From Escherichia coli (lineage in GTDB: Bacteria > Pseudomonadota > Gammaproteobacteria > Enterobacterales > Enterobacteriaceae): a DNA stretch of 64,000 nucleotides. Positions 1,180 through 60,754 of the stretch are shown here, piece by piece. A program made the position numbers and the translations under genes. Positions within the stretch are counted from its first letter, which is position 1. Each line of letters starts with the position of its first letter. The notes beneath the pieces were generated by a model. The model did not search any database. It saw nothing but the letters and a program-made list of their open reading frames with translations, and was not told the origin of the DNA. The stretch lies in the NCBI RefSeq assembly GCF_041248615.1, contig NZ_CP158425.1. One strand, given 5' to 3'.

Positions 1180-1439
1180 TCAGTCCACTTGCGGTTTCAT
1201 TGTTACTTTGTCATAGCGTCGTGTCAGAATGCGGCAGAGAACAGCGTTTACTATCAACGCAACACCAGACCAGAAAAACCATGTATTAACACCTATAACC
1301 TCAACAACCGGACCTGCAACAAGTAAGCCTATCGGCATAGAAAGAGTCATGGCGGTCATCAAAAGGGAAAACACCTTGCCCATCATTTCAGGGGCAATGC
1401 TTTCTTGAACATAAGCCATAACAGGAACATTCATAAATG
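1180..1439 (-). pseudogene. MFS-type transporter, C-terminal fragment truncated by IS26
   Basis: Hydrophobic C-terminal segment of a transporter-like ORF; reading frame runs into the IS26 terminal repeat at 1440. Confidence 0.5.
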
Positions 1440-2259
1440 GGCACTGTTGCAAAGTTAGCGATGAGGCAGCCTTTTGTCTTATTCAAAGGCCTTACATTTC
1501 AAAAACTCTGCTTACCAGGCGCATTTCGCCCAGGGGATCACCATAATAAAATGCTGAGGCCTGGCCTTTGCGTAGTGCACGCATCACCTCAATACCTTTG
1601 ATGGTGGCGTAAGCCGTCTTCATGGATTTAAATCCCAGCGTGGCGCCGATTATCCGTTTCAGTTTGCCATGATCGCATTCAATCACGTTGTTCCGGTACT
1701 TAATCTGTCGGTGTTCAACGTCAGACGGGCACCGGCCTTCGCGTTTGAGCAGAGCAAGCGCGCGACCATAGGCGGGCGCTTTATCCGTGTTGATGAATCG
1801 CGGGATCTGCCACTTCTTCACGTTGTTGAGGATTTTACCCAGAAACCGGTATGCAGCTTTGCTGTTACGACGGGAGGAGAGATAAAAATCGACAGTGCGG
1901 CCCCGGCTGTCGACGGCCCGGTACAGATACGCCCAGCGGCCATTGACCTTCACGTAGGTTTCATCCATGTGCCACGGGCAAAGATCGGAAGGGTTACGCC
2001 AGTACCAGCGCAGCCGTTTTTCCATTTCAGGCGCATAACGCTGAACCCAGCGGTAAATCGTGGAGTGATCGACATTCACTCCGCGTTCAGCCAGCATCTC
2101 CTGCAGCTCACGGTAACTGATGCCGTATTTGCAGTACCAGCGTACGGCCCACAGAATGATGTCACGCTGAAAATGCCGGCCTTTGAATGGGTTCATGTGC
2201 AGCTCCATCAGCAAAAGGGGATGATAAGTTTATCACCACCGACTATTTGCAACAGTGCC
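1440..2259 (-). mobile_element. IS26 (IS6 family), 820 bp
   Basis: Terminal inverted repeats GGCACTGTTGCAAA at 1440 and complement ending 2259; encloses Tnp26; flanking 8 bp differ (no target-site duplication). Confidence 0.95.
1492..2196 (-). CDS. tnp26: IS26 transposase Tnp26
   Basis: Protein MNPFKGRHFQRDIILWAVRWYCKYGISYRELQEM... matches remembered Tnp26; ORF-track N-terminal extension ignored. Confidence 0.95.
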   Translation of the reverse strand: MNPFKGRHFQRDIILWAVRWYCKYGISYRELQEMLAERGVNVDHSTIYRWVQRYAPEMEKRLRWYWRNPSDLCPWHMDETYVKVNGRWAYLYRAVDSRGRTVDFYLSSRRNSKAAYRFLGKILNNVKKWQIPRFINTDKAPAYGRALALLKREGRCPSDVEHRQIKYRNNVIECDHGKLKRIIGATLGFKSMKTAYATIKGIEVMRALRKGQASAFYYGDPLGEMRLVSRVFEM

Positions 2260-28858: not shown

Positions 28859-28940
28859 ATTCAACCTGATATTACAGAAGATCATCGAGTAGCTTGGGTA
28901 CCCCCCCGCAAAAAATTCGCATAGACTCAGGGGTAATAAA

Positions 28941-29507
28941 TTGTCTTTTTCTGCAAGAAATATATTTAAGATTCTCTCTTCTTTCTTGATGCAGAAAAGC
29001 CCTCTTCATGAAGAAGTATGTGTTCCTGAAGAAACAACAGCTGGTTTATGGGGCCCTCTCCCTGATTCGCATGTCGTGCTTTTCTTAGATTTCGATGGGG
29101 TTTGTCACAGGTGCAAAAATGAAACCTTTGAGCGAATGCCATTGGTGGAAAAATTACTGGATAAATGCCCTTCCATGGTGATTGTCATCTCCAGTTCGTG
29201 GCGTGAATGTGCCAGTATAACTTACCTGAAATCTCTTTTCCGGCTACCTTATAGAGACAAAGTCATAGGTGCTACCGATTCGGTATATTTAAAACCTAAT
29301 CAGTCAGGTGTGCGGGCTGCTGAGTGTGAGGACTTTGTATTTTCACATCGAGTTAAAGCATTTATCTGCCTTGATGACGACGAATCATTATTCCCGGTCG
29401 GTTATCCACATTTGCAAAAAACCAATTATTACACCGGCCTCACCGAATCTGATCTTGCAGCTCTTAACACCAGGTATCATCTGCTTATGAAACGTTGGGC
29501 TTCCTGA
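28941..29507 (+). CDS. HAD-superfamily-like hydrolase (tentative)
   Basis: FLDFDGV (DxDG) motif I, SSS motif II and CLDDDE motif IV-like. Confidence 0.4.
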   Translation: MSFSARNIFKILSSFLMQKSPLHEEVCVPEETTAGLWGPLPDSHVVLFLDFDGVCHRCKNETFERMPLVEKLLDKCPSMVIVISSSWRECASITYLKSLFRLPYRDKVIGATDSVYLKPNQSGVRAAECEDFVFSHRVKAFICLDDDESLFPVGYPHLQKTNYYTGLTESDLAALNTRYHLLMKRWAS

Positions 29508-29509
29508 AT

Positions 29510-29522
29510 TAAAGTAACTTTT
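29510..29522. repeat. AAAAGT-N-ACTTTT motif instance (TAAAGTAACTTTT)
   Basis: 12/13; between convergent HAD-like and HNH genes. Confidence 0.5.
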
Positions 29523-29614
29523 ACGGAGAGCATGCCCGCATTATCAGTTCTATGCTTCTCCATTTCTGCCCCGGGTCAAAGCATTGCACAGTTGGAAGAA
29601 AACATGCCGGTCTC

Positions 29615-30904
29615 TTAAGCTTGCTGCTCAGTTTGGTTCCGGTGCTGAAAAACCTGCCAACGGTGCTTTAGGAATTCAGTATTGATGGGTTTACGCAGCG
29701 GCTTAATAAACTCTCCTTGATATGCCGCTAAATCATGATCTACCGCCAAAGCTTCAGCGAGAATGTTAACCTCCAACGTCACCGGATGAATGGCAATCAT
29801 GTTTGCGTCGAAAAGATCGTGTATATCATGGCGTAAGAGCAACCCATTTGTATAATGGTCTACTCCTCCGTTACGATGCTCCATCAGATGAGCAGCCTCA
29901 GTGCGCTGGCGCAGTCTAGAGCCTGTAATCACACATTGGTCATAACAGTTGTTGCGGACGGCTTCTGCAAATGAGGCCTGATCTGGTCGTGTCTCGACAG
30001 TTGTCTTACTACCCTTACGCTTACCCGGTACAGTAGTTTCATCAGGAATATTCGGCTGAAGCTCCTTTTCTTCTATACCATCAGTCTTCATAGCGACCAT
30101 AATCGCGGCCGGTGGAGATTTAGGCTGATCTTCCTGCGATCTTTCGCGGCCACCAACTGGATACCCTAGAAAACCCTCAATGATCTCTAGTGGAGGTAAT
30201 GTAGCGTTTGAACGTGCATAAATAGCGAACTCTGCGGCACGTCCGCCGGGAATATATCTACGTACCAGTATTGGAAGAGAGGCTTCTTCATCTGGTTCCT
30301 CTTTTTCCGACAGGATTATTCGTTCGGTGAGACGGGCTGAATTTTTTTTCATTTCACTCAACAGTCTATTGCGTTCTTTTACCTTTCGGTCATTATCCTC
30401 CAACATCTTACGATGACTAACCTTAGCCAGATGGTCTTCCAGTTCCTGTATATATTCGGGATCGATAGTGTCAATTAGACCGAACGCCATCAACCGCTCC
30501 CCCCTTGTTTTACAAGATTCTAGCCGAACGCGAATGTACTCCTTACGCTTGGCCATCAAATGTTCTTTTTGTTTTTTTTCTCGAATTACACGGAGCTGAG
30601 TATTGTAATTAGAATAAACGGTTTCGCTATTCTGCTCTGTCTCTAGAGCAAATTTTTGTAGGTGTTCACGTAGTTTTTTACGGGTATTTTTGGGGGCATG
30701 CATTACGGTACGCTCAATGTATGAGCCTGTGCAGCGTAAAGAAAGTACAGTTTCAGCATGGGAATAACCAGCATTGAGACGATAGCGGGCAATTTTAAGC
30801 AAATTATTAAAGTGTGCACCATTACATATACCTAGTTCTTCCAAGACACGACGTTCTCTATCATTAATAGATGGATGGTTAATATCTTTTACTTTGTTTG
30901 CCAT
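29615..30904 (-). CDS. HNH endonuclease-domain protein with long coiled-coil N-terminal region
   Basis: C-terminal CVITGSRLRQRTEAAHLMEH...VDHYTNGLLLRHDIHDLFDANMIAIHP matches HNH_2-type motif. Confidence 0.65.
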   Translation of the reverse strand: MANKVKDINHPSINDRERRVLEELGICNGAHFNNLLKIARYRLNAGYSHAETVLSLRCTGSYIERTVMHAPKNTRKKLREHLQKFALETEQNSETVYSNYNTQLRVIREKKQKEHLMAKRKEYIRVRLESCKTRGERLMAFGLIDTIDPEYIQELEDHLAKVSHRKMLEDNDRKVKERNRLLSEMKKNSARLTERIILSEKEEPDEEASLPILVRRYIPGGRAAEFAIYARSNATLPPLEIIEGFLGYPVGGRERSQEDQPKSPPAAIMVAMKTDGIEEKELQPNIPDETTVPGKRKGSKTTVETRPDQASFAEAVRNNCYDQCVITGSRLRQRTEAAHLMEHRNGGVDHYTNGLLLRHDIHDLFDANMIAIHPVTLEVNILAEALAVDHDLAAYQGEFIKPLRKPINTEFLKHRWQVFQHRNQTEQQA

Positions 30905-30983
30905 GTCCTGTGTCTCAGTGCCTATTCAGCCGGAACATCTACTACATAAAGAACGAGATTGTACAGAAATCAGCTAAGTTTAT

Positions 30984-31019
30984 GAATAAAAAAGGCCGCA
31001 AATTTATACTTTGCGGCCT
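30984..31019 (-). terminator. rho-independent terminator downstream of the TraG-like gene
   Basis: Stem GGCCGCAAA / TTTGCGGCC followed by T-run on the minus strand. Confidence 0.6.
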
Positions 31020-31084
31020 TCACTGTTTAACACCATATTTTAGTAAATACGTTTAATTTTCATTAGGTTATATTTGAAACTCAC

Positions 31085-49575: not shown

Positions 49576-50307
49576 ATGGATGCTTTCAATCTGCTGTGGA
49601 GCATTACGGGGGTAGCTTTCATTATCCTTATTTTCGTCGTGTTGCTGTGTCTGTTGGGTTTTATGACCTCTGCCATAGCGGAACGGCGGACTGCAAAGGC
49701 AATTGAATCTGGGCTTCCTGAAGAAGCTCAGGGGCTACTTAGTGATCTCACCTTTCAGTTGTCGGCTCATAGCACTACTCAGGTTGATCACATTCTCGTA
49801 GCCCCACATGGTATATACGTCATAGAGCAGAAAAACTACGTAGGCAAGCTCTACGGTACTCTGGAGGAAAGCCACTGGCGGAAATGGACTCAGTCCCGAA
49901 CCCTCAAGTTGCAGAACCCGTTTAAGCAAAACCAGGGGCACATCAGGGCTATTCAGTCTGCTCTTAAGGCTAGAGAACTGGAATGTATCAATGTCGTCAT
50001 CATAAACGGACGTTGTAAGTTTGATGGCATCAAGCCGGAATGGTTATGTATGGGGATGGACGATTTTATCCATAAAGTCAAACAACGACGAGGGCTACGG
50101 TTGTTCACACCGGAGTCTGTTCAGCACATCTGTTCGGTGTTGAAGTCAACAAGGAAGTCGCCAGGGCTCTATACGGACCTTACTCATATTCACAACATAA
50201 CGACAAAGTACAAAGCCCCGATGAAATTCGAGCAACGAGTAACATACATTCTGCTCAACTTTATCCATTATCTGTGGGCAAGTCTGTTCACTAAGCAGAA
50301 GCCTTAG
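49576..50307 (+). CDS. NERD-domain protein with N-terminal membrane anchor
   Basis: DHILVAPHGIYVIEQKNYVGKLYG matches the NERD core; ATG one nucleotide after the peptidase stop. Confidence 0.65.
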   Translation: MDAFNLLWSITGVAFIILIFVVLLCLLGFMTSAIAERRTAKAIESGLPEEAQGLLSDLTFQLSAHSTTQVDHILVAPHGIYVIEQKNYVGKLYGTLEESHWRKWTQSRTLKLQNPFKQNQGHIRAIQSALKARELECINVVIINGRCKFDGIKPEWLCMGMDDFIHKVKQRRGLRLFTPESVQHICSVLKSTRKSPGLYTDLTHIHNITTKYKAPMKFEQRVTYILLNFIHYLWASLFTKQKP

Positions 50308-60199: not shown

Positions 60200-60232
60200 T
60201 CCACACCCTGAAAAGAGGGGGGTTGCCCCCCT
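60200..60232 (-). terminator. strong GC hairpin immediately 3' of hok-like gene
   Basis: AGAGGGGGG-TTG-CCCCCCTCT followed by T-run on the minus strand. Confidence 0.6.
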
Positions 60233-60241
60233 CTTTGTCAG

Positions 60242-60400
60242 CTACTTACCGGATTCGTAGGCCAGGATAGCAAATACCTCCCTTGTTCCGTCTTTCATCC
60301 GCAACTCGCAAAGCGAGTTTCGTGTGAGCCAGGTGAATATCAACAGCGTTAAACAAACTATTAATATGCACAAAACAATGGGTTGGTTCGGCATTTTCAT
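60242..60400 (-). CDS. hok: Hok/Gef-family membrane toxin (type I toxin-antitoxin)
   Basis: 52 aa [52 protein letters not shown] closely resembles Hok; in-frame upstream extension is mok-like. Confidence 0.85.
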
Positions 60401-60754
60401 GGCCTTCTTCTCCTTGCATTTAAGCAGGCAAGAGGCTACGCTGTGTGTGACTAGCATACAGGGGCCTCGGGTTAATTGAAAAATTACTCGGGGCTTTCTG
60501 CTTTTACCACAGTCAAACAGTGTTACCGCTGGCTGGGGCAAAAGCCTCCAGCACCAGCGTCATTATATCACTCTGCCCTGATCAGCCAAACACCCTGCCT
60601 GCATAAATCATTGATTTATAATTTATTTGACATGAGTCACTTCCGGTTGTCGGAGACAGTCTTTTTACACTAAAGAAAAGGGTAACGGGCAGCTGCTTGG
60701 TCGGAACATACAGTGCAGTTCCTGCCCGTTTAATTTCCGGATGCAATGGTAGGA

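Follow-up and report, generated by a model that had tools for sequence, protein, structure and literature searches.

What is a solitary nuclease gene doing inside the transfer region of a conjugative plasmid? The gene in question occupies positions 29615-30904, on the minus strand, of a 64,000-nucleotide stretch of an Escherichia coli contig (NZ_CP158425.1; the whole stretch is called the window below). Our analysis tentatively favors, at somewhat less than an even chance of being right, a solitary restriction-like DNA endonuclease that is carried as plasmid cargo and acts on foreign DNA, whether of phages or of rival plasmids. The observed part of this explanation consists of the domain identity, the intact catalytic residues, the accessory status of the gene, the swapping of its modules, and the neighborhoods of its relatives.

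29615-30904, minus strand: the HNH gene, a complete coding sequence in the open reading frame (ORF) list, with an ATG start and 429 codons plus stop

The product of 429 amino acids (aa) is RefSeq WP_001284752.1, labeled "HNH endonuclease signature motif containing protein" in plasmid pSTM6-275; no published characterization of the gene was found, and the original prediction had remarked that such proteins are rarely characterized. The region is 100% identical to IncHI2 plasmids (R478-type, MOBH relaxase, MPF_F), which are conjugative and are hosted by Salmonella, E. coli, Enterobacter, and Klebsiella. The protein itself is 100% identical in more than 500 IncHI2 plasmids, and 222 of 5,426 complete E. 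coli genomes (~4%) carry the gene, nearly always on a plasmid. Window 21528-61974 is collinear with the pSTM6-275 backbone except for a ~2.8-kb insertion sequence (IS) block, found only in pSTM6-275 and corresponding to window 60230-60470. The gene lies within the Tra1 transfer region directly downstream of trhF-trhH-trhG and is convergent with a gene for a HAD-domain protein, beyond which lie a lytic transglycosylase gene and a DsbC-like gene. The gaps that separate it from trhG and the HAD gene (180 and 107 bp, respectively) contain no ORF; no methyltransferase or immunity gene adjoins it at the locus, and a tblastn search detected no second copy within the window.

The C-terminus of the protein reads CVITGSRLRQRTEAAHLMEHRNGGVDHYTNGLLLRHDIHDLFD, an HNH-type motif at the position where the original prediction had placed one, and Pfam agrees.

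29618-30004, minus strand: HNH_2 nuclease domain of the beta-beta-alpha-metal type (residues 301-429; Pfam PF13391)
29888-29890, minus strand: codon of catalytic His339
29846-29848, minus strand: codon of catalytic Asn353
29819-29821, minus strand: codon of catalytic His362

The HNH_2 profile (PF13391) matches residues 324-373 over its entire length (model positions 1-66 of 66; E = 3.6e-10, score 40.0), is also precomputed for the protein cluster, and is the only significant Pfam domain in the 429-aa protein. Nine residues (Q309, F312, C324, A337, H339, N353, G354, H362, and D366) are invariant in the 85 sequences of the family, and four of these (H339, N353, H362, and D366) are likewise invariant in 12 full-length homologs. 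The concern that the catalytic residues might not be conserved among homologs is thus answered by His339, Asn353, and His362, to which family knowledge assigns the roles of general base, structural Asn, and metal ligand.

An AlphaFold2 model built on the 85-sequence family alignment has a mean predicted local distance difference test score (pLDDT) of 86.9 and a predicted template modeling score (pTM) of 0.39, indicating domains that are predicted with confidence in a mutual arrangement that is uncertain. The nuclease domain (residues 300-429) is modeled with a pLDDT of ~98, with strands at 335-339 and 354-358 followed by a helix at 359-366. A Foldseek search of the Protein Data Bank (PDB) with this domain retrieved the modification-dependent restriction enzymes VcaM4I (6yex, E = 2e-3) and TagI (6ghs, 4.5e-3), then EcoKMcrA and ScoMcrA; the alignments with VcaM4I and TagI cover ~120 columns at 21% identity, and Cas9 HNH domains are matched as well. 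The predicted fold is therefore closest to modification-dependent (type IV) restriction enzymes. Profile, catalytic residues, and predicted fold all identify the final 130 residues as an HNH_2 nuclease domain. Searched exhaustively, a set of 1.84 billion representative proteins yielded 4,184 relatives of the domain at E <= 1e-3 and only 35 at E <= 1e-30; in PHROGs, the matches are to families of unknown function and cover the C-terminal part only. HNH_2 enzymes form group 6 of the His-Me finger superfamily, which comprises the restriction endonucleases AlwI, BbrI, and HphI, and the recognition determinants of group 6 enzymes lie outside the His-Me finger (PMC5714182).

In the 429-aa protein, the region outside the finger is a long helical module joined to the nuclease by a linker.

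30695-30904, minus strand: small four-helix bundle (residues 1-70; helices at 15-23, 32-44, 49-57, and 60-68; pLDDT >90)
30326-30691, minus strand: two long charged helices (residues 72-193; helices at 72-130 and 149-193)
30167-30292, minus strand: three-helix bundle (residues 205-246), conserved and acidic in the AlphaFold2 model and the alignment
30005-30157, minus strand: disordered linker (residues 250-300), acidic and proline-rich, tethering the nuclease domain

Residues 1-250 are predicted to be entirely helical, and a separate model of residues 1-252 has the same secondary structure. The first bundle is basic (isoelectric point 9.2) and may represent a recognition or DNA-binding module. 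The two long helices are the most divergent part of the family; the turn between them (RGERLMAFG) is conserved, with R137, F141, and G142 nearly invariant. The three-helix bundle contains the most conserved N-terminal motif (LVRRYIPGGRAAEF...PLEIIEGFLG), and L210, L213, I218, G220, F226, P238, and F245 are invariant in full-length homologs. In the linker, pLDDT falls below 50 at residues 257-283; in other plasmids, IS5 and an IS3-family element interrupt the gene at the beginning of this linker or slightly ahead of it. The long charged helices that had been read as a coiled-coil N-terminal domain are indeed predicted, but a canonical coiled coil could not be sustained: the observed heptad a/d periodicity of the two helices was reached by 799 and 1542 of 2000 shuffled sequences. 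Shuffled sequence does as well as the real one by this measure, and it is more cautious to call this part of the model a long helical hairpin.

Attempts to identify the N-terminal fold returned only its own family or generic long-helix matches. None of the 85 family members has a Pfam domain N-terminal to HNH_2, with a single weak NUMOD-like match of the I-HmuI type in one of them (E = 0.011). A profile search found no relatives among PDB sequences, and the N-terminal profile retrieved only family members from a database of 5.8 billion proteins. Foldseek against AFDB50 found the protein itself and fragments, and NCBIfam models matched nothing beyond the family when the sub-domains were searched in isolation. 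Full-length relatives form about 10 clusters, all from Enterobacterales. A wider set of relatives, whose sequences were read by eye, shares three islands (the N-terminal bundle, the "RL-A-F/W-G" turn, and the "Y-I/V-R...EF" bundle) and also keeps the linker and the nuclease. So far, the gene has been known only by a generic "HNH" annotation; what appears to be new is a helical front end without detectable relatives.

Comparison with characterized enzymes clarifies what kind of protein this may be. The type IV HNH enzymes VcaM4I (6yex), TagI (6ghs), EcoKMcrA (6ghc), and ScoMcrA (5zmm) resemble it in being single polypeptides with an N-terminal recognition part and a C-terminal HNH domain, and in lacking a cognate methyltransferase; EcoKMcrA likewise resides on a mobile element, the e14 prophage. 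However, these enzymes employ known readers (SRA, YTH/EVE-like, the phosphorothioate-binding domain, or the McrA N-domain), whereas the helical module is unrelated to them, and no modified-base reader domain (SRA, YTH/EVE, phosphorothioate-binding, or McrA-N) is found in the 429-aa protein. Since a recognizable reader is absent, we do not class the protein as type IV. AlwI, BbrI, and HphI (HNH_2/COG3440, His-Me finger group 6) share the PF13391 catalytic family with it, and are type II enzymes paired with methyltransferases. Unlike enzymes of the HphI/AlwI type, the gene has no adjoining methyltransferase; the nearest one annotated on a reference IncHI2 plasmid, a cytosine methyltransferase, is ~25 kb away, in DNA that has no counterpart in the window. 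END nucleases (PMC12191111) and CMoRE (PMC12923530) follow the same logic, in which a single protein carries separable domains for sensing and for cleavage and lacks a partner methyltransferase, but their folds are unrelated (a type IIS-like nuclease with an inactive EndoIII domain, or a GIY-YIG nuclease), and the likeness is one of analogy only. As far as sequence comparison can tell, the protein is not a type II restriction-modification (R-M) enzyme, given the absence of a methyltransferase at the locus, nor is it a typical homing endonuclease, a polymorphic toxin, or any system represented in PADLOC.

The helical module and the nuclease have had separate histories. In a third form of the locus (L009, encoding protein P0003), the flanks are ~92% identical to the window, but detectable DNA similarity breaks off at the stop codon of trhG and is found again from about codon 290 of the HNH gene onward. 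Synonymous divergence (dS) between the two forms is 0.28 in the nuclease domain, 0.34 in trhG, and 0.17 in the HAD gene, while the first 295 codons are saturated at synonymous sites (proportion of synonymous differences, pS = 0.64-0.81). Because synonymous sites are saturated there and dS in the nuclease domain is close to that of trhG, these comparisons indicate that a distant allele replaced the N-terminal two-thirds of the gene and the promoter region by recombination, leaving the nuclease domain with the backbone. The lower GC content at third codon positions of the N-terminal part (0.35 versus 0.46) fits such an exchange. Positive selection on the N-terminus was considered and rejected, as the synonymous saturation points to recombination with a distant allele. 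Phage-plasmids repeat this pattern: at a shared syntenic site, P0009 and P0012 differ greatly in their N-termini. The closest variant (P0002) has a 22-residue deletion in the first long helix and a ratio of nonsynonymous to synonymous divergence (dN/dS) of 0.39; together with ratios of about 0.2-0.6 in the folded domains, this argues for purifying but relaxed selection on the protein. The short linker alone has a dN/dS of 2.4, based on very few substitutions.

Some relatives have defense genes as neighbors. On an Enterobacter plasmid, the homolog P0004 lies in a tight same-strand cluster, an apparent operon, of the form orf91-HNH-orf86-KAP NTPase, in which the KAP NTPase is PifA (PADLOC E = 2e-238). 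In Salmonella bongori, P0007 sits on an island with a type I R-M system on one side and Mokosh MkoC (PADLOC E = 0) on the other; a second HNH_2 gene and hipA are close by. P0008 adjoins a type I R-M system and a NERD-domain helicase. Homologs also occur on SSU5-like phage-plasmids. P0009 and P0012 are carried by ~100-kb phage-plasmid-like contigs, at a site between a YafQ-type toxin and tail-fiber/terminase genes, and P0026 has the genes for Dam, RNase H, ThyA, and DHFR as neighbors on an element of similar type. On a Serratia plasmid, P0027 is flanked by two replication-initiator genes, and P0005 occupies a small chromosomal islet in Pectobacterium. Large MOBH-relaxase plasmids encode two or three paralogs each. 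Phage collections contain few members of the family (eight INPHARED records, matching the C-terminal domain only, and four IMG/VR loci).

The cluster with pifA can be seen on an Enterobacter hormaechei plasmid contig (L006 7716-11697), where orf91, an HNH homolog 42% identical to the protein, orf86, and PifA are encoded on the same strand. The homolog takes the position that pifC occupies, upstream of pifA, in an F-like plasmid; identity with PifC was rejected, as the HNH family has no homology to it, and the pairing of HNH and PifA is not widespread in PLSDB. An ORF of ~90 aa lies upstream of the homologs L006 and L010 (41% identical to each other); it was dismissed, being absent from the window and showing no profile similarity to the N-terminal module.

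The position between trhG and the HAD gene is itself variable. A sensitive DNA search of PLSDB with the gene and 4 kb around it distinguished several classes of plasmid. Approximately 526 carry the HNH gene at >=99% identity; ~424 IncHI2 plasmids (lineage B) have flanks 95% identical and different slot content; and IncHI1 plasmids match in the flanks only, with the slot empty (in pHCM1, a bare 246 bp separates the HAD gene from trhG). Other IncHI2 plasmids mark the slot and its surroundings, window 28922-31015, as a hot spot for independent insertions, several of which struck the gene or its putative promoter.

30164-30169: IS5 insertion inside the HNH gene, between the N-terminal module and the nuclease
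30141-30144: IS3-family insertion inside the HNH gene, between the N-terminal module and the nuclease
30974-30978: ISKpn26 insertion inside the spacer of the predicted promoter
31007-31015: ISVsa5 insertion in the trhG terminator
28922-28932: IS1 insertion between the lytic transglycosylase and HAD genes

There is also a report of an mcr-1 transposon located between the genes for DsbC and the HNH protein (PMC5748712). Because IS elements struck the gene or its promoter at least four times, the gene must be dispensable, and the plasmids so affected are still typed as conjugative. The HNH gene thus appears, on comparison of these plasmids, to be optional accessory cargo outside the conserved transfer apparatus, to which it cannot belong because IncHI1 plasmids have nothing at this position.

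Signals upstream of the gene suggest that it is expressed on its own.

30991-31021, minus strand: intrinsic terminator of trhG (12-bp stem with 6 G-C pairs, T-run)
30958-30986, minus strand: candidate sigma-70-like promoter of the HNH gene (-35 TTCATA at 30986, 17-nt spacer, -10 TACAAT ending at 30958)

The promoter, ~54 nt ahead of the ATG, was called by a consensus scan (9 of 12 matches) and is a prediction only; such consensus matches support independent transcription of the gene. Of the promoter and terminators originally ascribed to the gene, the promoter-like site and the upstream terminator of trhG were recovered, but the scan found no convincing minus-strand terminator after the stop codon. 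The description of the gene as stand-alone holds: no methyltransferase or immunity gene adjoins it, and the terminator and promoter-like site set it apart from trhG.

If the protein is indeed a solitary restriction-like endonuclease, the helical module of 250 residues would be responsible for target selection and oligomerization; as a single HNH site cleaves a single strand, a dimer would be needed for a double-strand break. The flexible linker of 50 residues would let the nuclease reach DNA bound by the N-terminal module, and specificity would shift whenever recombination swapped that module while the nuclease domain was retained. Since there is no methyltransferase or immunity partner, the cell's own DNA would have to be spared through target specificity or through control of activation. 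The homolog contexts and the cassette-like variability of the slot lend circumstantial support to the candidacy for defense, exclusion, or competition functions put forward in the original prediction.

Several observations weigh against a restriction-like role. Target recognition is pure conjecture, because the N-terminal module is unlike any known modification reader or DNA-binding domain, and no methyltransferase or immunity gene was seen that might account for self-protection. The NCBIfam phosphorothioate-restriction model scores 16.5 bits, far below its cutoff of 180. In PADLOC-DB v2, the protein matches generic HNH models only (E = 1.7e-5 and 0.029, both in the C-terminal domain) and no system-specific anti-phage protein model. 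Plasmids with an IS-disrupted HNH gene persist, so that any benefit must be conditional, and the dN/dS of 0.3-0.4 for the HNH gene is relaxed relative to 0.05 for trhG. The genomic contexts of relatives are those of about 10 loci, inspected without an enrichment statistic.

Among the alternatives, the one that survives best, though we consider it quite unlikely, is a nuclease toxin comparable to colicin or polymorphic-toxin DNases, serving plasmid addiction or else bacterial or plasmid competition; it would kill cells that lose the plasmid, or rival cells or plasmids. It draws on lineage B (e.g., pFJMB80063_1), in which the slot contains two genes on the opposite strand (L016 2823-4400, corresponding to window 29508-31084). 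The first encodes a 353-aa protein with a C-terminal colicin-like HNH domain (WP_000902297.1; PF01844, E = 1e-4) and the second a YrhA-family protein (WP_000654195.1; NF038335, E = 2e-36), so that by sequence the cassette looks like a toxin-immunity pair; PF13391 is, in addition, listed for effectors of eukaryotic pathogens, and its name appears in a paper about modular lipoprotein toxins that outer-membrane exchange transfers (PMC8546572). The cassette and the 429-aa gene share a slot, the HNH superfamily, and the status of unannotated cargo. They differ in strand and in HNH family, the proteins have no sequence similarity to each other, and the partner with the look of an immunity protein is confined to the cassette: gaps of only 107 and 180 bp beside the 429-aa gene leave it without an immunity gene. 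Neither a signal peptide nor a secretion or trafficking domain was detected (HNH_2 being the only Pfam domain in the 85 members), and the nuclease domain is nearest to restriction enzymes, not to toxin DNases. Also against this alternative, the two slot occupants are unrelated in sequence.

The presence of the gene in some plasmids and the empty slot of IncHI1 also invite a selfish interpretation, to which we give a small probability: a free-standing homing-type endonuclease that cuts the empty trhG/HAD junction of related plasmids and spreads by recombinational repair, with no benefit to either plasmid or host. An intergenic, stand-alone HNH gene with a promoter-like site, polymorphic for presence at a fixed backbone site, with recombination breakpoints at its borders and inside it, and dispensable as judged from the IS insertions, is what such an element would look like. 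However, presence/absence polymorphism is not specific to homing, because the slot takes unrelated cargo too (the HNH and YrhA cassette, IS elements, and the mcr-1 transposon; PMC5748712). The nuclease belongs to the restriction-type HNH_2 clade, and homologs are found at many unrelated loci, including defense islands and operons. Homing endonucleases are typified by NUMOD, AP2, and IENR DNA-binding modules; none of these was found in the 85 members, in which Pfam detects HNH_2 only.

The location of the gene, directly downstream of trhF-trhH-trhG in Tra1 and ~9 kb from the trhR/mobI divergent region, in which oriT probably lies, is the argument for an accessory role in IncHI2 conjugation or plasmid DNA metabolism, for instance as DNA-binding regulator or helper nuclease. 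We regard this as improbable: a strong terminator separates trhG from the HNH gene, IncHI1 and IncHI2 lineage B are typed as conjugative without the gene, as are plasmids in which an IS disrupts it, and in the contexts inspected no homolog outside IncHI2 is linked to transfer genes. A functionless remnant decaying after acquisition would account for the tolerated IS insertions and for a dN/dS above that of trhG, but is scarcely credible for an intact reading frame that is identical in more than 500 plasmids, has invariant catalytic residues, and shows dN/dS clearly below 1 in all folded domains.

A plasmid-wide motif originally noted as flanking the gene is real but turns out to have no connection with it.

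29511-29521: backbone palindrome copy AAAGTAACTTT, 4 nt past the HAD gene stop codon

This copy, AAAGTAACTTT at 29511-29521, marks the downstream (HAD-gene) edge of the variable slot and lies outside the HNH gene. The palindrome AAAGTNACTTT occurs at 15 sites in the window (24953, 26517, 27418, 29511, 36423, 39042, 39483, 39968, 43391, 44829, 46559, 51461, 56510, 56636, and 63629), against ~1.5 expected by chance, and is thus ~10-fold over-represented. All 15 sites are in the backbone (24953-63629). Four exact AAAGTAACTTT sites fall in the portion of the window that the 92%-identical plasmid (L009) covers, and L009 retains each of them at a syntenic position. Several copies overlap or directly follow stop codons (those of the DsbA, DsbC, and HAD genes), and two lie within the trhR/mobI divergent region. 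The motif is also present at the stop codons of the HAD and DsbC genes in IncHI1 and IncHI2 lineage B. A role for it as target or regulator of the HNH gene was rejected, as both of these groups have it at the same position without the gene, and for that reason it is best regarded as a feature of the IncHI backbone. AAAGTNACTTT probably serves as a binding site for a dimeric protein of the backbone; no literature on the motif was found.

Some further features of the plasmid were noted. The HAD-domain protein whose gene converges on the HNH gene has 188 aa (window 28941-29507, plus strand) and a dN/dS of ~0.4; its L009 homolog falls in Pfam HAD_SAK_2 (PF18143), and the gene is kept in the backbones of both IncHI1 and IncHI2. 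IncHI2 has a second, shorter HNH_2 paralog of 202 aa (WP_000289256.1), ~44% identical in the nuclease domain, which lies outside the window (L002 6797-7405), between the mer (mercury-resistance) operon and an H-NS-family gene in the plasmid examined. A 243-aa protein annotated as "nuclease-related domain-containing protein" (window 49576-50307, plus strand) is the product of a backbone gene that ends the row mobI-relaxase-coupling protein-S49 peptidase. The first 21.5 kb of the window (1-21500) form a separate accessory region with a GC content of 53% versus 45% in the backbone. This region contains no backbone palindromes and has no DNA in common with the reference IncHI2 stretches compared, save an 824-bp match at window 1436-2259, which is the size of IS26.

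A wider reading, which we hold to be rather unlikely, would make the protein and ~35 related clusters a new single-gene system against mobile elements in the plasmids, phage-plasmids, and islands of Enterobacterales. A helical module exchangeable through recombination would sense some class of invading DNA or an invader protein and release the tethered HNH_2 nuclease, unaided by any methyltransferase or immunity partner, and the trhG/HAD position would be a dedicated "weapon slot" with alternative nuclease cassettes. If this were true, hosts of IncHI2 plasmids with mcr-1 and extended-spectrum beta-lactamase (ESBL) genes would gain phage resistance or exclude rival plasmids. If, on the other hand, the gene confers no phenotype, it is just another piece of plasmid cargo, selfish or neutral.

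IncHI2 plasmids rank among the main vehicles of mcr-1, mcr-9, ESBL, and metal-resistance genes. Should the solitary nuclease restrict phages or competing plasmids, it would shape which hosts retain these resistance plasmids and would affect the performance of phage therapy and plasmid-curing strategies. Moreover, if the helical module without known relatives guides a restriction-type nuclease, it would represent a new recognition module for solitary nucleases, a possibility to which the apparent swapping of this module by recombination, with the nuclease kept, adds weight.

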